A stretch of 64,000 nucleotides of DNA, taken from IMG/VR virus record IMGVR_UViG_3300024270_000037; one strand, written 5' to 3'. The translations under genes and the position numbers were made by a program. Numbering within the stretch: the stretch's first letter is position 1; each line of letters opens with the position of its first letter. Positions 7,317 to 64,000 of this stretch are shown here, piece by piece. Under the pieces are notes generated by a model that was given only the letters and a program-made list of their open reading frames with translations, searched no databases and was not told the DNA's origin. This DNA comes from an uncultured virus (IMG/VR IMGVR_UViG_3300024270_000037) (taxonomy: Duplodnaviria > Heunggongvirae > Uroviricota > Caudoviricetes).

Positions 7317-10193
7317 ATGGCTAATTTTCCTTATATAAATGAAAATGAAAATCTCGTTTTAGGATTATTGAAAATGTATTCTAGAATGGGTGCATTTCCT
7401 ATTGATCCTACGAGTGTTTTTAATAATAAAGATGAAGTATTAGCATATATTAATGAACCTGGTTCTTATGCATATCCTGGTCAGATTATTGCTGTTGCAA
7501 ATGGTGACATTTCTAATAATATTCAAGATACTGATTATAGTTTATGTATAATCAAATCGGATAAGTCTATTCAAGAAATTGGTAAAAATTTAACTTTCTC
7601 CTCTATTGAAGAAGCTACTAGATTCGTAAACAGTAATAAGTCTAGTGTTCATCCTGGTGAATTAATCACCGTTGGTAATAAGGATACTGGTTATACTTTA
7701 AATATAGTCCAGGGTGATTATACTTTACGTACTGTTGAACTCGAATCTGAAGAAATTCCTGAGATTTCTTGGGAAAATTTACAAAATAAACCCACTTCAT
7801 CAGTTCAAGATATTGATAATGCAGTTTCTGTTAAACATAATCATTTAAATAAAGAAGTTATCGATAAATTTGATACTGCTGATAATAGGGTTCGCTATGA
7901 GTCTAATCCTATCGCATATATGTCTGATATTAGTTGGGAAAATCTTCCCGACAAACCTACAGACCTTGGAAGTTTAGGTATTGAAGACGTATATACTAGC
8001 ACTCAGGTTGATAATTTATTTGTTAAAAATGATGATATTGTTTCAGTACCTGAAGCTGGTAAAATTTTAAAATTAGATGATAATGCTCAGATTCCTGCAT
8101 CTATTTTATCTGGTACAATTCCTCTTGCAAGTTTACCTCATGGTGCTTTAGAACGTTGTGTTGTTGTTACTGATGACACTGCAAGATATGAATTAACACC
8201 TGAAGATGTACAACTTGGTGATACTGTTAAAGTTAATGATACTGGAATGATGTATTTTGTAGTCGACGTTTCAAAATTACATGAAGATGGCGGCTATGAA
8301 GTATATTCTGCAGGCACAGCATCTAATGTTGCTTGGTCTGGTATTACAAATAAACCTACAACTATAGCAGGTTATGGTATCACTGATGCAGTTAACACTA
8401 ATATTATCACTGATTATGCTGAAGCTGGTAAACTTCTTAAGTTAGATGAACAAGGTAAATTACCTACTGATATTACTGGTGATGCAAAAACTCTTGATGG
8501 TAAACGTGCTACTGATTTCGTATCTACTGACAATGTATCTGATACTCCTGAAGCAGGTAAATTGTTAAAATTAAATGAAGAAGGTAAACTTCCTACAGAT
8601 ATTACTGGTGATGCAAAAACTCTTGATGGTAAACGTGCTACTGATTTCGTATCTACTGACAATGTATCTGATACTCCTGAAGCAGGTAAACTGCTTAAGT
8701 TAAACGGTGAAGGTAAATTGCCTGCTGATATTACTGGTAGTGCAGCTAATGTTGAATGGTCTGGCGTTCAGAACACTCCTAACACATTAAGTGGTTATGG
8801 TATTACTGATGCAATTTCTAATGTAGATATAGTAAGTGTACCTACACCGAATAAAGTATTAAAATTAAATGAAAATGGTGAACTTCCTGCAAATATTACT
8901 GGTAATGCTGCAACTGCTACTAATGTTGAATGGTCTGGCGTTCAGAGCAAACCTAATACATTAGAAGGTTATGGTATTACTGATGCTTATACCAGTGAGC
9001 ATATTGATAATACATTCATTAATAAATCTGAAGTTGTTTCTGCTCCTGAAGCTGGTAAATTATTAAAATTAAATGAAGAAGCTAAGTTACCTGCTGATAT
9101 CACTGGTAATGCTGCAACTGCTACTAATGTTGAATGGTCTGGCGTTCAGAACACTCCTAACACATTAAGTGGTTATGGTATTACTGATGCTTATAATAAA
9201 ACTGAATCTGATGAAAAATATATTCATGTAACAGATGTTGTTGATAGTGCAGAACCTAGTAAAATTCTTAAATTAGATACTGAGGGTAAATTACCTGCAA
9301 GTATTTTAAATGGTATTATCCCATTAGCAAATTTACCTCATGGTGCTTTAGAACGTTGTATTGTTGTAGCTTCTGATACTGCTCGTTTCTCTTTAACAAA
9401 TTTAAATGTACAAAATGGTGATACTGTTAAAGTTGAAAATACGGGTAAAATGTATTTTGTTGTAGATGAATCTAAGTTAGGTTCTGAAGCTGGTTATGAA
9501 GTATATACTGCTGCAGCTGCAACTGCAGTTCCGTGGTCTGGTGTTCAGAATACTCCTACTACATTAAGTGGTTATGGTATTACTGATGCTTATACCAGTG
9601 AGCATATTGATAATACATTTGTAAATGTTGAAGACGTTTCTTCTAATCCTGAAGCTGGTAAACTTCTTAAGTTAGATGAAGAAGGTAAATTACCTGCTGA
9701 TATTACTGGTAATGCTGCAACTGCTACTAATGTTGAATGGTCTGGCGTTCAGAGCAAACCTAATACATTAGAAGGTTATGGTATTACTGATGCAATTTCT
9801 GTAAATGATGCAAATAATAATTTTGTTTCTATTAATGAAGTTGTAAATAATGCAGTTCCTAATAAAATTTTAAAATTAAATGCAGATGGTAAACTGCCTG
9901 CTGATATTACTGGTAGTGCAGGATCAGTTGCATGGAGTAGTATCATTGGTGGCCCTACATCTGAAACTAGTGAAATTGATGATGCTGTTACCTTACGTCA
10001 CAATCATTTAAATAAAGATACTATTGATAAATTAGGTATTAATGAGTCTGGTAAACTTACATTTAATGAAATAAATACTTTAGCATATATGTCTGATGTT
10101 AGTTCTATTATATCAGTTGGTGCAGTTGAACCTGATAGCAGTATGCCTGTTGGTGGAATGTGGTTAGATACTAATATTGACGAAATTATGTAA
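7317..10193 (+). CDS. repeat-rich tail fibre protein
   Basis: 958 aa; many P(E)AGKLLKL(N/D)xxGKLPxDITG and WSGVQxxPxTLxGYGITDA repeats typical of phage tail fibres. Confidence 0.75.
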   Translation: MANFPYINENENLVLGLLKMYSRMGAFPIDPTSVFNNKDEVLAYINEPGSYAYPGQIIAVANGDISNNIQDTDYSLCIIKSDKSIQEIGKNLTFSSIEEATRFVNSNKSSVHPGELITVGNKDTGYTLNIVQGDYTLRTVELESEEIPEISWENLQNKPTSSVQDIDNAVSVKHNHLNKEVIDKFDTADNRVRYESNPIAYMSDISWENLPDKPTDLGSLGIEDVYTSTQVDNLFVKNDDIVSVPEAGKILKLDDNAQIPASILSGTIPLASLPHGALERCVVVTDDTARYELTPEDVQLGDTVKVNDTGMMYFVVDVSKLHEDGGYEVYSAGTASNVAWSGITNKPTTIAGYGITDAVNTNIITDYAEAGKLLKLDEQGKLPTDITGDAKTLDGKRATDFVSTDNVSDTPEAGKLLKLNEEGKLPTDITGDAKTLDGKRATDFVSTDNVSDTPEAGKLLKLNGEGKLPADITGSAANVEWSGVQNTPNTLSGYGITDAISNVDIVSVPTPNKVLKLNENGELPANITGNAATATNVEWSGVQSKPNTLEGYGITDAYTSEHIDNTFINKSEVVSAPEAGKLLKLNEEAKLPADITGNAATATNVEWSGVQNTPNTLSGYGITDAYNKTESDEKYIHVTDVVDSAEPSKILKLDTEGKLPASILNGIIPLANLPHGALERCIVVASDTARFSLTNLNVQNGDTVKVENTGKMYFVVDESKLGSEAGYEVYTAAAATAVPWSGVQNTPTTLSGYGITDAYTSEHIDNTFVNVEDVSSNPEAGKLLKLDEEGKLPADITGNAATATNVEWSGVQSKPNTLEGYGITDAISVNDANNNFVSINEVVNNAVPNKILKLNADGKLPADITGSAGSVAWSSIIGGPTSETSEIDDAVTLRHNHLNKDTIDKLGINESGKLTFNEINTLAYMSDVSSIISVGAVEPDSSMPVGGMWLDTNIDEIM
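8469..8690 (+). repeat. intragenic tandem duplication (93 bp identical, 129-bp period)
   Basis: 8469-8561 is identical to 8598-8690. Confidence 0.9.
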
Positions 10194-12456: not shown

Positions 12457-13698
12457 TTATTTCTCTTCAGATAATTCTAAGATGTCATTAATTAATTCAT
12501 TAATATATAGCGTATTCACATATAAAATAAATCTATATGTAGAACTATGGTTACAATTATATGTAGTTAGAGTATACTTATCAAAATCAATAGAATAATC
12601 CACTTTATCTCTTAAATCTACATTATCTTTAGTAACTCTATATCTCATAAATACACTTAAAGGAATATTATGATCTTTATGATACTTAATAACAGCAGTC
12701 ATACTATTATTCATCAATGTACCAAATTCAGTTATATCAGGTTTTTCTGTAGTTTTATAAATAGGAGCGGTGTAGACATTCCAACCATCTCCAGGTCTTT
12801 TTTCATCTAAATTATTAATAGTAAATAGAGGAATAATTCTATTATCACTAGTCTCATTCAAATTAACATCTAATTTTTCAATAAGATTAGGCGTATACGC
12901 AAAATAATAATATAAACCTGCGGAATTAAATTCAGTAGATACAGTGAACGAAGTAGTAAATGCATCGGATACAAATCCTTTTTTACTACCATCATCAATA
13001 CTTAATCCTTGAATTATAGTATCAATATTAACAGGATAATGTCTAAAGAATTCGTCATTACCACTACTATTTTTCATTTTATATGTAATTGGATATACAG
13101 ATACACCATTTACATAATTTAAAAAATTAGCAATAGAACCATTTTCATCATACATTGGAATACCGACATCTTCTGACATAACTCTCATTAATTCCCTAGG
13201 AATATAACTTTCTAATGAAGTCTGAATAAAGAAAGGAGCATCCTGTCTTACTCTATTTTTAAAGAAATGAGCAATATTTAATTGCTCTATTTGTGTTTCA
13301 TTTATTATAGTAACATCAAATAACATTTTTAATCTATTCAATAAAAATTTCATACAGTTTCCTCGTTCATTATCTTCAATAAATGGTTGTAAATTAGTGA
13401 ACGAAGTATCCATAAAATTATCAGTCATTCTAGTGGTCATATACGTATTGTATAAGAATGTATCTGAATCATTTATTTCTATTCTAGGTCTAATAATTAA
13501 CATAGGTTTACTTTTCTTTAAAAATTCTTTATTAGAATTTTGAAATACATTAAATTGTCTATATGCAATTGTAGAACTTACATGTACTGTTTTAAAATAT
13601 CCTTCAGGAAACATCTTTTTTAAATAGTCAACTATTTGACAAGTAACATTTCCATATGTATGAGCTAAAGATGTTTGAGATACAGTATATTCTCTCAT
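12457..13698 (-). CDS. hypothetical protein, probably virion-associated
   Basis: 413-aa ORF with RBS, AACA-N6-TA motif at 13731-13742 on the minus strand. Confidence 0.55.
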   Translation of the reverse strand: MREYTVSQTSLAHTYGNVTCQIVDYLKKMFPEGYFKTVHVSSTIAYRQFNVFQNSNKEFLKKSKPMLIIRPRIEINDSDTFLYNTYMTTRMTDNFMDTSFTNLQPFIEDNERGNCMKFLLNRLKMLFDVTIINETQIEQLNIAHFFKNRVRQDAPFFIQTSLESYIPRELMRVMSEDVGIPMYDENGSIANFLNYVNGVSVYPITYKMKNSSGNDEFFRHYPVNIDTIIQGLSIDDGSKKGFVSDAFTTSFTVSTEFNSAGLYYYFAYTPNLIEKLDVNLNETSDNRIIPLFTINNLDEKRPGDGWNVYTAPIYKTTEKPDITEFGTLMNNSMTAVIKYHKDHNIPLSVFMRYRVTKDNVDLRDKVDYSIDFDKYTLTTYNCNHSSTYRFILYVNTLYINELINDILELSEEK

Positions 13699-52953: not shown

Positions 52954-52987
52954 AAATACAGATTATCTATATAGATAATCTGTATTT
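52954..52987 (-). terminator. terminator closing the repeat-array transcript
   Basis: Perfect 34-bp palindrome AAATACAGATTATCTAT/ATAGATAATCTGTATTT with a U-tract on the minus strand. Confidence 0.7.
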
Positions 52988-52999
52988 CATTTTAATATC

Positions 53000-53738
53000 T
53001 GATTCAATAACAATACCTGATTCATTTCTCAAGTATGATGATATTTATTGCATCCTGATTTATTCATAACAACTGATACTATGATAATAACTGATTCATT
53101 AGCATTTATTGATACTATTTGTTATGGTATGATTCATTGATCATATCAAGATACTTTTACCCACACGATTCACTAGACTTGAATGATACATATTGTCAGT
53201 CACTCTGGCTCATTGATACCTATATGATACTTTTTTATAACATGATTCATTAATCTATTCTGATACTTTTTTATTGTCATATGATTCATGTTCAGATCAT
53301 TGATACTATTATATGTAATGATTCATTAGAACCTGATGATACTATTATGTGTTCATGTTTCATTCACATGTTCCTTGATACTTTATTCATAGTCGATTCA
53401 TTCCCATTCAATGTTTCTATAAATTCAAGATGATTCATTAGGCTCAAATGTTACAAATTTCAGTCACCCTGATTCATTGTATTCATCGGATACTATCTGC
53501 TAATTACGATTCATTTAACTATCCTGATACCTTTATAATGACAAATGATTCATTAGACTCAAATGATACTATAATCCACCCTGATTCATTTCAATAAAAT
53601 GACACAATGATCTTCAATGATTCATTTAAATATAATGATGCGATCCTTGTCAATGATTCATTATCCCCGTATGATACTATTTATCTGCATCCTTGATTCA
53701 TGTGATTCCATTGATATTATTATACTTTTTGATTAATA
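53000..53738 (-). repeat. TIGR-like dual-repeat guide array, about 19-20 units of 36-40 nt
   Basis: Alternating 9-nt repeats TGATTCATT and TGATACTAT (plus strand) separated by unique, mostly 9-nt spacers; no ORF; hairpins on both flanks; strand inferred from terminator polarity. Confidence 0.88.
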
Positions 53739-53779
53739 AATATAAGGTACTAGGCAAATAAGTCTAGTACCTTATATAT

Positions 53780-54454
53780 TTAAACTCTAATACGTCCTTC
53801 AGCAATCATTAAACTAACAAGTTTCTTAAGATCTTTCTTAGAATCTTTAGGATTGTGCTTAATGCCGTGTTCTCTAAGCATCTTAGTCATTTGTTTTTTA
53901 CCAAGAGGCTTAACAAATGCACGAATTTCTTTTTTATGAGGAATTTTATAAGGATCAATATCTTGGATTTCACCAATTTTCTTTTCAAGAACCTTAGCTA
54001 CTTTCTTTTTTACCTTATCATTAATAGTTTCACATGCTTCAGGATCTTTTCTATATTTCTTATAACTATAAGTTTTAACCCCATAGATATTTTCAATATA
54101 CTGACAAATAATATCAATATATTTAAATTCATCTTCAGCTTTAGAGCAGATCAAGACGACATTGGCGTTATCTATAATTGCAAGTTTAACGGCAACTGTA
54201 ATCATTGCTTCGACTCTAGGAGTCTGGATATAATCTAAATAATTTTTAATATATTTCTCGGAATATCCCACCTGAATAAAATCAGAAATAATATTAGGTG
54301 GGGGAATTAAAGATGGAATAGCATATACATTTTTATACTGATTCGTAGTCTTAATATCTTCAGAAATTAATAGAAAATTAAATTTCTTATAATCATGCTT
54401 CTTAATAAATTTATCGAGAAATTCATCAGATCTCATTCTAATAATACAAGCCAT
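53780..54454 (-). CDS. hypothetical protein with C-terminal HeH/LEM-like basic motif
   Basis: 224 aa; ends LGKKQMTKMLREHGI...SKKDLKKLV. Confidence 0.55.
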   Translation of the reverse strand: MACIIRMRSDEFLDKFIKKHDYKKFNFLLISEDIKTTNQYKNVYAIPSLIPPPNIISDFIQVGYSEKYIKNYLDYIQTPRVEAMITVAVKLAIIDNANVVLICSKAEDEFKYIDIICQYIENIYGVKTYSYKKYRKDPEACETINDKVKKKVAKVLEKKIGEIQDIDPYKIPHKKEIRAFVKPLGKKQMTKMLREHGIKHNPKDSKKDLKKLVSLMIAEGRIRV

Positions 54455-57102: not shown

Positions 57103-57696
57103 TTATAAAAGTATTTGATTTTCATAATCGATATTTTTCGATTTAATCAATGATTCTTTTATTTTTAATTGTTTATTATACTTTTTATATTCTTTAGAAA
57201 CTATATTATCACACTTTTTATTTTGTTGATAAATGAATAAAAAGTCATCGAATGAGATTTCTACATTATTTCTTTTACAGAATTCATTATGAGCTTCTCT
57301 TAATTTATGACCTGATACATGAGATTTAATATGATAAAAAGATACTTTATTATTAAATTTACTAATAGTATCTTTAATCTCATTAATAATTGTATTACTG
57401 AATGTATCATCTACACAGTTCTTATCTGATAATATAATACTTATAGATGTTAATGAATCTGTATAGATACTGATATGAAAATCATCATCTAATATATTTT
57501 TCTGCACACAATAACCATATGCTCGTGAAAGTATTTTATTAATAGCAAATAGTTCAGCAAATGTACTCGATTTCCATAATATTACTTTTTCATAAGTTAA
57601 TACCTTCTTTCTATCCACATACATCCGTCCTGTAGAGACTGCCACTTTTCCTTTCTTAAAACTTCCACCATCTGTAAATAAGTTTATATTTATCAT
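57103..57696 (-). CDS. rnhA: ribonuclease HI
   Basis: LFTDGG, AELFAI, IYTDS, HIKSH, N..CD catalytic pattern. Confidence 0.8.
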   Translation of the reverse strand: MININLFTDGGSFKKGKVAVSTGRMYVDRKKVLTYEKVILWKSSTFAELFAINKILSRAYGYCVQKNILDDDFHISIYTDSLTSISIILSDKNCVDDTFSNTIINEIKDTISKFNNKVSFYHIKSHVSGHKLREAHNEFCKRNNVEISFDDFLFIYQQNKKCDNIVSKEYKKYNKQLKIKESLIKSKNIDYENQILL

Positions 57697-61262: not shown

Positions 61263-62606
61263 TTAAATATAATCTTTATATTGCTCCTTAACTTCAGCCA
61301 TATGTCCACAAGTTAACTTACCTTCCTTACATTTACCAGTTGTAACACAAGGAGGAATAGCATATTTTTTAACTAAATGAGGATATGTATTATGTAGAAT
61401 CTTAAATTTCTTTAAGTACAGTTCACGAATTTCTTCCTGTGCAGTATAACAAAGTCTATCCTTAAAAATATTATTATCATTTCTAATATTAGAGGATACA
61501 ACAAATCTAATAGCTGCGGCATTTAACATAAATTGCATTAAGAACTGAATATCATATTTTTTATTATACTTAGCATAAAAATCTTCATACTCATCAATTA
61601 AAGCATGGAATTCAGTTAAGAATTGATCATTATAAATAATGGACTTAGGGATAACATATTCTCTATCCTTACCACAGACTAAATCTTTTAAAGCTTCTCT
61701 TCTAATATTCTGAAGTCTATGTCTAATAACTTGATGATATGCTGCTAAAGAACAAGTCATCGCAAATTTAGTTCTGGAATGTTCATTGATACCATGATGA
61801 CCATATCCTAACACATTTCTACAGATCTTTAAATCATTAGCTTCAGTATCAGGACCCCAAGAATTATAAACTTCATCAGGAGAAGCTTCATTCTGACTTG
61901 CTAATGCAGCTACTGCTACATTATTCATAGAATTAAGCATATAAATAGGATTAATCAGAGAAAGATCCTTAATATTTTCTTTAAAATAATTGTCATTAAT
62001 ACGATTATCAGTCTGAGTATTATAATATGCAGCTACAGTTAAATTATGATACAGTTTAAAAGGAATCAATTTTTCCATATCTTCCTGAAGAGATTTAAAA
62101 ATTAAAGGATATTTAGTAAATAAAATAAATAGATCAATTAACTTATCTGCACTCATGCTAACTACAAGATGAGTAGACATGGCTAAAGGCAGTACAGATC
62201 GTCCATCTTCATACATAATACCATGAACAAAATCTTCTTTAGCAGGACGACCCTTTTTATTAGGATTAACTAATTCAGTCATTTTATTATATAAATTAAT
62301 GGATTTATTTACCAATGTAGAACCTTCAATAATTAATTCTTCAGGAGTATTATCTAAGAATTTAATAAATTTATTATTAACAGGGACATATCTCTGAGAT
62401 TGCTGTACATAAGAGAATCCTGCTTCACAAATTAATGTACTCTGGAGTCTATTAATACCAGATAACACAAATGAAACATTTTCAGCCATTAATAAATTCT
62501 GTAACTCATTAAAATTAAAATATTTGTCAGAATAACGTCTAAGATAATCATTAATCTTTTCCATATTATCAAATTGAAAATTTTTAATATAATAAGTAGT
62601 ATTCAT
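61263..62606 (-). CDS. thyX: FAD-dependent thymidylate synthase with two tandem ThyX domains
   Basis: Domain 1: SYVQQSQRY..EDGRSVLP; domain 2: GHHGINEH..HQVIRHR..RLC..AQEEIR..P.C...C.EG..TCG. Confidence 0.8.
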   Translation of the reverse strand: MNTTYYIKNFQFDNMEKINDYLRRYSDKYFNFNELQNLLMAENVSFVLSGINRLQSTLICEAGFSYVQQSQRYVPVNNKFIKFLDNTPEELIIEGSTLVNKSINLYNKMTELVNPNKKGRPAKEDFVHGIMYEDGRSVLPLAMSTHLVVSMSADKLIDLFILFTKYPLIFKSLQEDMEKLIPFKLYHNLTVAAYYNTQTDNRINDNYFKENIKDLSLINPIYMLNSMNNVAVAALASQNEASPDEVYNSWGPDTEANDLKICRNVLGYGHHGINEHSRTKFAMTCSLAAYHQVIRHRLQNIRREALKDLVCGKDREYVIPKSIIYNDQFLTEFHALIDEYEDFYAKYNKKYDIQFLMQFMLNAAAIRFVVSSNIRNDNNIFKDRLCYTAQEEIRELYLKKFKILHNTYPHLVKKYAIPPCVTTGKCKEGKLTCGHMAEVKEQYKDYI

Positions 62607-63153: not shown

Positions 63154-63220
63154 ATTATTCTCCTTTCATAAATTCATATTATTATAAAGTTTACTTAGTA
63201 ATAAAATCAAAATAAATAAT

Positions 63221-63233
63221 AAATATATATTAT
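63221..63233 (+). promoter_or_regulatory. putative early promoter AAATATATATTAT
   Basis: Exact match 64 nt upstream of the ATG at 63297. Confidence 0.65.
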
Positions 63234-63296
63234 TTAAATGAATCCAAGCAAATATATAAAATTGTAACAACCAAAAAAGAAAGGAAATTTTTGTTT

Positions 63297-64000
63297 ATGT
63301 GTGCAGCTAAGAAGACCCCCAACAAGAATGATATGGATAAGACCATTGAGAATAAGGTTGAGCCTTTATTTGATGTGGCTAATATGACTATTAAGGATAT
63401 TAAAAAGCATCCTATTAAAGATGATGAAATTCGTAATGCAATTGAAGTATATTACGATATGCAAGATATTCGTATTAGAACTGGTAATCGTAAAAGTGCA
63501 GTTGCTAGAGAAGAATTGAAGAAGATGAAAGAGGAAGCTATTCAGAATGGAAAATCTGTTGATACTATCGATTGTGAACAGCCTGTTTATCTTCAATATA
63601 TTGAAAACCAGTTTAAAGAAACTGAAACAACAATTTCTAAGTTCCTTGGTTATTATGCAAAATCTCATCCTATCGGAAAATGGATGCTTAGTATCAAGGG
63701 TGTTGGTCCTGTCATTGCTGCAGGTATGCTTGCATATATTGATATTAAAAAATGTAATACTGCAGGTTCCATTTGGAATTATGCTGGCTGGGATGGTTCT
63801 CGTAAAGTTAGAACTGCTGGACAAAAAATTACATGGAATCCTAAATTTAGAGTTTTGTGTTGGAAACTTGGTGAATCCTTTGTAAAAACTTCTAATAATA
63901 AAGATGATATTTATGGTCATCTTTATAGAGAAAAGAAGTCTTGGTATGAAGCTAAAAATGAAGCAGGTGGATTTGCAGAAAAAGCTGCAGAAGAATTGAA
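63297..64000 (+). CDS. 3'-truncated Nop-domain (IS110-related) protein lacking N-terminal RuvC: Tas (TasA-like) candidate
   Basis: Own translation: MCAAKK...YYDMQDIRIRTGNR...HPIGKWMLSIKGVGPVIAAGMLAYIDIKKCNTAGSIWNYAGW...WNPKFRVLCWKLGESFVK...YGHLYREKK; AGAAAGGA RBS; frame open to the window end. Confidence 0.8.
   Translation, partial: MCAAKKTPNKNDMDKTIENKVEPLFDVANMTIKDIKKHPIKDDEIRNAIEVYYDMQDIRIRTGNRKSAVAREELKKMKEEAIQNGKSVDTIDCEQPVYLQYIENQFKETETTISKFLGYYAKSHPIGKWMLSIKGVGPVIAAGMLAYIDIKKCNTAGSIWNYAGWDGSRKVRTAGQKITWNPKFRVLCWKLGESFVKTSNNKDDIYGHLYREKKSWYEAKNEAGGFAEKAAEEL

Follow-up and report, generated by a model that had tools for sequence, protein, structure and literature searches.

Introduction

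The closest described relatives of the locus reported here are the TIGR-Tas systems of Faure et al. (2025; PMC12045711). In the format which those authors describe, dual-repeat arrays consist of alternating repeats of 8–12 nt and spacers of 9 nt and are closed by a terminator, and the Tas proteins which go with the arrays are related to Nop proteins. Faure et al. also define a solo form of the protein, TasA, and report that TasA binds 36-nt RNAs. Their example from Flavonifractor plautii, FpTasA, is by its description a nuclease-free protein with a coiled coil and a Nop-like domain, whose gene is followed directly on its 3' side by an array with two alternating 9-nt repeats, 9-nt spacers, a 36-nt unit and a terminator. 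For a different TasA, a preprint (10.64898/2026.09.09.750476) reports guide-dependent repression of transcription.

Structures are available for two relatives that carry nuclease domains: SpTasH of Salicola phage CGphi29 (PDB 9w03, 9w04 and 21kl), which has an N-terminal HNH domain and for which Y289 and H296 are described as the catalytic pair in RNA processing (NAR 2026, PMC13421893), and TaTasR (PDB 9mty), which has a RuvC domain. More distantly, the bridge-RNA recombinases of the IS110/IS621 group share a homologous RNA-binding C-terminal domain.

We describe here a tasA gene of a jumbo phage and 2 TIGR arrays of the same repeat type, of which one, array B, adjoins the gene and the other, array A, lies 9.6 kb away in inverted orientation. 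Very probably, the nuclease-free product of this gene binds and blocks DNA, using the adjoining array B and probably serving array A in trans. With a family that is already in print (2025) and represented by a curated NCBI model, tasA and its adjoining array make an ordinary member of that family. The dispersed layout of the arrays, including the second, inverted array, is a modest and mildly new variation that is apparently undescribed.

Results

The tasA gene and its surroundings

The window, by which we mean the whole stretch of 64,000 nucleotides that was analysed, corresponds to the minus strand of G000:C1:50775-114774 in a virus record of 263,786 bp that is rated 100% complete. A previous examination of the window, made from its letters alone and called here the sequence-only reading, had drawn attention to a plus-strand ORF at 63297 that has no stop in the window. 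This ORF is real: our ORF map of the window contains a 3'-open frame at 63291..63998 (+), with an ATG at 63297 and no stop inside, and when the downstream DNA (L002) is included the frame closes at 315 codons, with its stop 244 bases past the window edge. The gene and the features around it are the following.

63297..64000, plus strand: tasA, window part; 704 nt from the ATG onward, the complete gene being 948 nt (315 aa) and ending at extended coordinate 64244
L002 12532-13479, minus strand of L002: tasA, full gene, from translation of the downstream DNA
63280..63287, plus strand: RBS-like AAAGGAAA, 9 nt 5' of the tasA ATG, by consensus resemblance only
63154..63296: intergenic region from which tasA (+) and the leftward operon with array A at its end (-) diverge
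61263-62606: ThyX gene, a neighbour of tasA
57103-57696, minus strand: RNase H gene, in the operon that ends with array A
Convergent with array B: thymidylate kinase gene, transcribed toward the array B terminator
Further downstream of tasA: split RNA polymerase beta subunit genes

The neighbourhood of tasA is thus made up of phage nucleotide-metabolism and transcription genes, plus the TIGR arrays. As to the signals for expression that the sequence-only reading had assigned to the gene, the RBS has its counterpart in the RBS-like element listed above, but the early-promoter motif does not stand: a scan for sigma-70-type sites found 19 in the tasA region against 15.8 +/- 3.8 in shuffled sequences, which is chance level, and the best site on the tasA strand agreed at only 9/12 positions. 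Around the arrays and tasA, such sites were likewise not commoner than in shuffles. Since genes for RNA polymerase subunits are present in the phage itself, a sigma-70-type scan says little about transcription here. An Rfam search of the 12.6-kb stretch that holds the locus returned no family at its gathering score.

The locus was found in DNA samples from animal faecal and bovine gut metagenomes; no RNA run was listed among the 18 runs checked for it. Contigs of run X5 spanned all 12.6 kb of this stretch and had 0 differences from it; the pieces listed for runs X6-X8, which do not all cover the arrays, also showed 0 differences. No gain or loss of array units was seen between samples X5-X8, which may come from one campaign and represent the same strain.

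Family membership and predicted fold of TasA

The curated model NF052498.1 (TIGR_Tas_endo; NCBIfam release 20, 'TIGR-Tas system RNA-guided endonuclease') matched the 315-aa protein over aa 46-279 at 189.5 bits, where the cut-off is 100 (E 7.3e-56), and both this model and the family profile found 1 Tas gene in the genome. The IS110 model NF033542 failed, with 20.3 bits where its cut-off asks for 140, in keeping with the view of the sequence-only reading that the protein is TasA-like and not a transposase. Searches with Pfam gave a sub-threshold match to PF02371 (18.6 bits vs 21.3, aa 131-166) and nothing else toward the N-terminus; there was no match to PF01548 (DEDD), nor to PF01798 (Nop) at E <= 10. 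Nop5 was also absent from the rows listed by both of the fold searches described below, and the Nop relation of Tas proteins is taken from Faure et al. (PMC12045711). PHROGs places the protein in phrog_4285, which is labelled 'transposase'. Against the sequences of PDB chains, the protein matched TasR (9mty_A, 2.9e-16) and TasH (21kl_A, 3.3e-11). The peptides which the sequence-only reading had quoted as coiled-coil and IS110/Nop-like motifs, YYDMQDIRIRTGNR, SIKGVGPVIAAGMLAYID, SIWNYAGW and WNPKFRVLCWKLGESFVK, are all present in the translation.

An AlphaFold (AF2) model, made with an alignment of 50 sequences (pLDDT 89.9, pTM 0.82), has 2 long helices at residues 42-83 and 97-122, in agreement with the coiled coil that had been noticed earlier, followed by a helical C-terminal domain. 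In a Foldseek search with this model, chains of TasH or TasR filled the top 10 places (8e-9 to 2e-6), and IS621 and ISCro4 came lower (6e-3 to 1e-2). A separate fold search of 48,161 chains gave TasH at Z 19.6 (224 residues aligned, 3.7 A), TasR at Z 18.1 (195 aligned, 2.6 A) and ISCro4 at Z 11.9, the next row, at 8.6, being generic coiled coils. The structural alignments with TasH and TasR begin at residue 40-42 of the TasA model and at chain residues 66 (TasH) and 111 (TasR), which is past the nuclease domains of those proteins. Only ~40 residues lie ahead of the coiled coil in TasA, and they contain no Pfam domain. These results agree with the earlier remark that an N-terminal DEDD/RuvC domain is missing. 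The serine loop of IS110 enzymes (PxxxxSG) is missing as well, as had also been remarked, since the dipeptide 'SG' does not occur in the sequence.

In the full 315-aa protein we found no HNH or RuvC nuclease domain, and for this reason we class it as TasA, the solo form of Faure et al.: a nuclease-free member of the TIGR-Tas family with a coiled coil and a Nop-like domain. The sequence-only reading had allowed for both a nuclease domain and a second array beyond base 64000; the second array exists, as described below, and the nuclease domain does not.

SpTasH is the best structural match. The C-terminal LGH motif is conserved between the 2 proteins, and H299 of TasA aligns with the catalytic H296 of SpTasH. 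TasA differs from SpTasH in having no N-terminal HNH domain and in having F292 in place of Y289, and the 2 proteins are 23% identical (tblastn). With TaTasR, TasA has in common the motif YxxxQxxRIRTGNR at the start of the coiled coil, but it has no RuvC domain, and cleavage is therefore not expected. Similarly, TasA resembles the IS110/IS621 recombinases in its C-terminal domain and differs from them in lacking both the DEDD/RuvC domain and the serine loop and in scoring far under the family cut-off; moreover, guides at this locus come from arrays, in contrast to the single bridge RNA of the recombinases.

A homodimer of TasA was predicted with an interface at residues 27-116 and a score of 0.54, a mark that was reached by 20/30 one-chain-pair structures and by 1/23 single-chain structures, the best control for TasA being 0.00. 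Contact agreement between runs was 34% or more, and the pLDDT of the partner was at least 78. The predicted dimer may be an echo of the TasR and TasH dimers whose structures are already solved.

Array B adjoins tasA and array A shares its repeats

The sequence-only reading had known of a single array, at 53 kb in the window (array A), and had placed it ~9.6 kb from the effector gene, with about ten genes between. That distance is correct: from the end of array A at 53737 to the tasA ATG there are 9,560 bp, with 11-12 ORFs between. It had gone on to describe array and effector as physically separated, and this picture is corrected by a canonical array (array B) that begins 24 nt past the tasA stop codon, on the same strand. 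The features of the 2 arrays are as follows.

L002 12521-12549, tasA strand: hairpin overlapping the tasA stop (-20.6 kcal/mol, z -7.1)
L002 11757-12507, minus strand of L002 (the tasA strand): TIGR array B, ~20 units, outside the window
L002 11677-11722, tasA strand: strong terminator closing array B (z -12.2)
53740..53777, minus strand: stable hairpin 5' of array A (-18.5 kcal/mol, z -5.1)
52983..53737, minus strand: TIGR array A, ~20-21 units, spacers nominally 9 nt
52954..52987, minus strand: terminator-like hairpin plus T-run closing array A (-18.4 kcal/mol, z -5.8)

Array B is opened by a degenerate edge repeat, 13 nt beyond the hairpin that overlaps the tasA stop, and its units are of the form ATGAATCA / TAGTATCA with half-periods of 18 nt. 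Array A has the edge repeat (A)ATGAATCA and the loop repeat (A)TAGTATCA, and it forms the tail of the divergent leftward operon, the last gene of which is at 53780-54454 (-); the hairpin at 53740..53777 sits between the stop of this gene and the first repeat of array A. A terminator scan of the array A region found 1 terminator-like site, where 0.1 were expected. Both arrays open and close with degenerate repeats of the ATGAATCA type, and the two mirror each other around the divergent region 63154-63296. Each is separated from its upstream gene by a terminator-like hairpin, after which there is no room for a promoter. The sequence-only reading had not mentioned that array A lies on the strand opposite to tasA.

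The clade consensus, from 137 canonical units in six genomes, is AATGAATCA-N9-ATAGTATCA-N9, a 36-nt unit of two 9-nt repeats and two 9-nt spacers. Both arrays fit the published dual-repeat TIGR format, and the locus resembles the FpTasA type, as Faure et al. describe it, in its nuclease-free solo protein, its unit structure and the array directly 3' of the gene. It differs from that type in its repeats, AATGAATCA / ATAGTATCA, in which we read box C as UCA and box D as UG / AG, in the second inverted array 9.6 kb away and in its jumbo-phage setting. On average, repeats matched the consensus at 7.14 of 8 positions in array A and 7.24 of 8 in array B. That array A shares its repeats with the array belonging to tasA makes it plausible, from the repeat sequences, that array A would be used in trans by TasA. 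A motif scan and a periodicity detector agreed that the genome contains only these 2 arrays; a chain parser gave one extra candidate (C1 91021-91105, 5 elements, mean 5.6/8), which is weak and was treated as chance.

The physical separation of array A from tasA had also been expected to defeat detection by neighbourhood. We do not find this to be so, since array B directly adjoins the gene. The 9.56 kb fall outside the 5-kb flanks which are given for the survey of Faure et al. 2025 but within the flanks of up to 10 kb given for the TIGRFinder preprint of Xu et al. 2026, and the NCBIfam model already names the protein.

Related phages carry one tas gene and dispersed arrays

The family is a large one: 775 of 1,460 candidate proteins scored at E <= 1e-3, and 410 stretches of viral contigs encode a relative. 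Among the best 80 of these 410, which we examined for arrays, 66 carried an array no more than 400 bp from the tasA match, 4 had only a more distant array and 10 had none. About 15 of these 80 loci had at least 2 array-like regions in their flanks, some of them doubtful. The k-mer detector used in this survey is crude, in that it missed the short array of one locus (L003) which pattern and chain searches caught, and some of its second 'arrays' rest on unrelated k-mers and may be spurious.

Among isolated phages, 82 records gave a match, but no match extended over 80% of the protein; the best were Microcystis phage Mvi-JY20 (27.7%) and Salicola phage CGphi29 (23.2%). The closest large relatives, G001-G005, carry the very same repeat pair as the present phage; counts of the repeat pattern were 4, 8, 42, 18 and 23, respectively, and those of the reversed control were 0, 0, 0, 1 and 4. 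These five related phage records have 1 tas gene each and 1-5 arrays, which lie up to ~110 kb away from it.

G001, 65-kb fragment: tasA at 3.2-4.0k; a single short array just upstream of tasA
G002, 210 kb: tasA at 121.2k; the only array, of 37 units, at 9.1-10.4k
G003, 247 kb: tasA at 209.1k; arrays at 57.8k, 85.4-87.1k (47 units), 153.1k, 207.7-208.4k (adjoins tasA) and 226.2k
G004, 320 kb: tasA at 196.8k; arrays at 197.7k (adjoins tasA), 203.9k and 267.0k
G005, 299 kb: tasA at 263.1k; arrays at 262.5k (adjoins tasA), 245.4k and 252.2k

The sole detected array of G002 is 111 kb from tasA along the record or, should the genome be circular, at least 97 kb in the opposite direction, and the 5 arrays of G003 hold ~95 guides over 170 kb. 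Homologous flanks pair some of the distal arrays with each other, namely G003-57.8k with G002-9.1k and G005-252.2k with G004-203.9k. An exact pattern of three repeats occurred in 19 stretches on 12 viral contigs, 5 of which had sites more than 5 kb apart.

It is a real possibility, which we put forward tentatively, that this clade of gut jumbo phages runs a distributed TIGR system, with one tasA and several scattered arrays. In the literature that we searched, we found no account of TIGR-Tas in jumbo phages, and such arrays may be listed in the supplementary tables of the surveys or in TIGRSafari. Several arrays in this clade lie far beyond the 5-10-kb flanks of the surveys, so that for large genomes the numbers given for guides per system, and for tas genes that are 'array-less', may be off.

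Most of the arrays lie directly behind unrelated genes, several of these arrays between hairpins, and guides could therefore be produced in step with different transcription units. Distal arrays hold their position between diverged phages, and their spacers turn over.

Proposed activity of TasA and alternative explanations

By homology with the characterised systems, we suppose that both arrays would be transcribed, that TasA would dimerise via its coiled coil, and that the dimer would take up 36-nt tigRNAs, each running from half an edge repeat through the 9-nt spacer A, the loop repeat and the 9-nt spacer B to another half edge repeat. Within an 18-bp DNA site, spacer A would then pair with one strand and spacer B with the other, and there the complex would block transcription or replication without cutting; it is the lack of a RuvC or HNH domain that leads us to expect binding and blocking. 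A likely functional analogy is with the nuclease-free CRISPR systems (type IV, V-M and dCas-like), in which RNA-guided binding without cutting also occurs on mobile elements, a comparison that is drawn by Faure et al. (PMC12045711). The TIGR-Tas systems differ from these in their unrelated fold, in their split 9+9-nt guides which read both strands, and in having neither a PAM nor adaptation genes.

With regard to processing of the tigRNAs, a pairwise HMMER alignment, which places the pair in a loop region, aligned Y289 of SpTasH to F292 of TasA and H296 to H299. With F292 in place of the catalytic tyrosine, autonomous processing by TasA is not assured. Among 120 homologues, the Y289 column contains 58 F and 62 Y, and H299 is invariant. 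In the covariation of F292 and H296, a compensating H/H pair was considered and rejected, the counts among the 120 homologues being F/H 41, Y/I 33, Y/H 22 and F/I 13.

The part assigned to array A in this proposal can be disputed. Array A lies on the opposite strand, 9.6 kb off and behind a terminator-like hairpin, and its flanks have no homologue beside the arrays of the five relatives; one could suppose from this that array B alone feeds TasA and that array A is an orphan relic, duplicated and inverted, which is unused or has some other role. We consider such a relic unlikely, as the repeats of array A are kept as well as those of array B, the number of its units is similar and it has a terminator of its own. 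Furthermore, relatives keep distal arrays at conserved positions, G002 having its sole detected array 111 kb from tasA, and at window 53438 array A has a guide that agrees with one of G004 at 17/18 positions.

Binding by TasA might also serve something other than blockage. Faure et al. (PMC12045711) discuss whether TasA might assist integrases and point to tasParB operons, and an RNase H gene (57103-57696, -) belongs to the operon of which array A is the tail, so that TasA could be imagined as a targeting module that recruits a nuclease, a recombinase, a ParB-like protein or the nearby RNase H, with cleavage, recombination or partition as the outcome. This appears improbable to us, in that the 17 neighbour proteins included no ParB, integrase or nuclease family at E <= 1e-3, RNase H excepted, and a TasA alone is reported to be enough for repression (preprint 10.64898/2026.09.09.750476). 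Finally, PHROG 4285 and some database names label the family 'transposase', and there is the weak PF02371 match, from which one might take the protein for the C-terminal domain of a decayed or domesticated IS110 transposase with no role in guide RNA, and the arrays for unrelated satellite repeats. We give this hardly any credence: the protein falls far below the IS110 cut-off (20.3 bits vs 140) and well over that of the Tas model, its fold is closer to TasH and TasR than to IS110, the DEDD domain is absent, gene and array are linked in 66/80 of the related loci (best 80 of 410), and the array format is exactly the published TIGR format. The reading that we prefer is accordingly that of a guide-directed, nuclease-free TasA which would bind and block DNA, with array B as its own array and array A as a probable second source of guides.

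Guide sequences and their possible targets

In the published geometry of cleavage by TIGR-Tas nucleases, the cut is described at the 5th spacer base and leaves 8-nt 3' overhangs, and on this basis we expect a target to read 5'-[spacer A][reverse complement of spacer B]-3'. We used 38 of 39 parsed units, in which both spacers were at least 9 nt, to scan the phage's own genome. These 38 guides gave 0 matches at 0-1 mismatch and 7 at 2 mismatches, where control guides that were mispaired or of wrong geometry gave 8-24. Similarly, 233 guides, taken from all six related genomes and scanned against the same six, gave 2, 23 and 659 matches at 0, 1 and 2 mismatches, respectively, as compared with 0-2, 17-26 and 543-624 in the controls, which is no excess. 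Neither scan therefore points to self-regulation or to phages of this clade targeting one another. In public collections of hundreds of gigabases, chance alone would yield exact 18-mer matches, as is also remarked in the preprint of Xu et al.

The guide that array A has nearly in common with G004 had a 16/18 site at G005:272485, inside a gene; this was not above chance, which we put at ~130 two-mismatch matches per gap setting, and is treated as a lead only. Apart from this conserved guide, guide pairs between genomes agreed at 12/18 positions or fewer, save one at 15/18, the peak in swapped controls being 15.

Within genomes, 12 pairs of guides had at least 13/18 spacer positions in common, and in G005 one identical guide was present in two arrays. 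In the big array of G003, 4 similar pairs of guides were at a constant offset of ~670 nt, a spacing which indicates that an 18-unit block was duplicated in tandem. Multi-unit blocks that duplicate in tandem and then diverge may be the way in which arrays grow, and this would be one answer to the question of how spacers are gained in TIGR arrays. The block duplications and the guide kept between distant phages are concrete leads on the origin of spacers and on their targets, both of which the authors of the published work call open.

Arrays, guides and array units in related phages

We examined the whole records of four related jumbo phages (G002-G005) and observed that each carries one tas gene together with one to five TIGR arrays, whose repeat type is the same as that of the window phage. 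These arrays are dispersed, lying as much as ~110-150 kb from the tas gene, and two pairs of distal arrays occupy homologous genome positions. In G002, the array inventory of the whole record revealed no array adjoining tasA.

Identical or nearly identical guides occur in some cases in different arrays or different phages. The spacer pair of one unit of the window's second array (array A), at 53403-53438, is identical at 17 of 18 positions to a pair in G004 (G004:C1:~204300), and the TasA proteins of these two phages are only ~47% identical. The target implied by this nearly identical pair is partly palindromic; a candidate site matching the guide at 16 of 18 positions, which does not exceed chance expectation, is located within a gene of G005 (272485). 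Within G005 itself, an identical guide (18/18) was found at G005:C1:245697 and in the array at 262497-262977, the two arrays being 17 kb apart and on opposite strands.

Guide-versus-guide comparison also showed that similar units recur at constant offsets inside single arrays, namely ~670 nt in a G003 array (G003:C1:85403-87082) and 363 nt in a G002 array (G002:C1:9064-10400). Array A contains three related units (window 53213-53589, with starts at 53589, 53477 and 53213). This pattern looks like one in which blocks of several units were duplicated in tandem and the copies then diverged.

Hairpins preceding the arrays

Strong terminator-like hairpins were located ahead of array A and of array B, the array directly downstream of tasA (L002 is the DNA stretch covering tasA and array B):

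L002 12521-12549: hairpin overlapping the tasA stop codon, before the first repeat of array B
window 53740-53777: hairpin separating the gene ahead of array A from the array's initial repeat

In both cases the gap from hairpin to array is no longer than 13 nt. Such an upstream hairpin, with z of -4.7 or below, precedes 5 of the 17 arrays of the clade.

TasA residues, length and naming

Residue 292 of the window phage TasA (P0001), encoded past the window edge (L002 ~12604-12606), is Phe and aligns with Y289 of SpTasH, described as catalytic in PMC13421893. Among 120 homologues this column holds F in 58 and Y in 62; H299 does not vary at all, and H301 varies very little.

Lengths of 411-485 aa were recorded for eight of the 120 listed homologues (P0019, P0027, P0029-P0031, P0037, P0053 and P0071), one of which, P0019, contains PF13306, and the open frames spanning tasA are 495 aa in G003 and 437 aa in G004. 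Some TasA relatives may carry an extra domain. The curated NCBIfam model NF052498 has the product name 'RNA-guided endonuclease', and automatic annotation through this name would mis-describe nuclease-free TasA, the window protein included.

Other features of the region

Phage-encoded neighbours of the TIGR locus include split multi-subunit RNA polymerase beta-like proteins, ThyX, thymidylate kinase and RNase H. The window also contains two long tandem repeats. The positions are:

L002 5387-9783, minus strand: phage genes around the TIGR locus
window 61263-62606 and 57103-57696: phage genes around the TIGR locus
window 8419-8738 and 8852-9304: two long tandem repeats

The periods of these repeats are 129 and 204 nt. 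Each is present in 2.2-2.5 copies, and both probably lie within a coding region.
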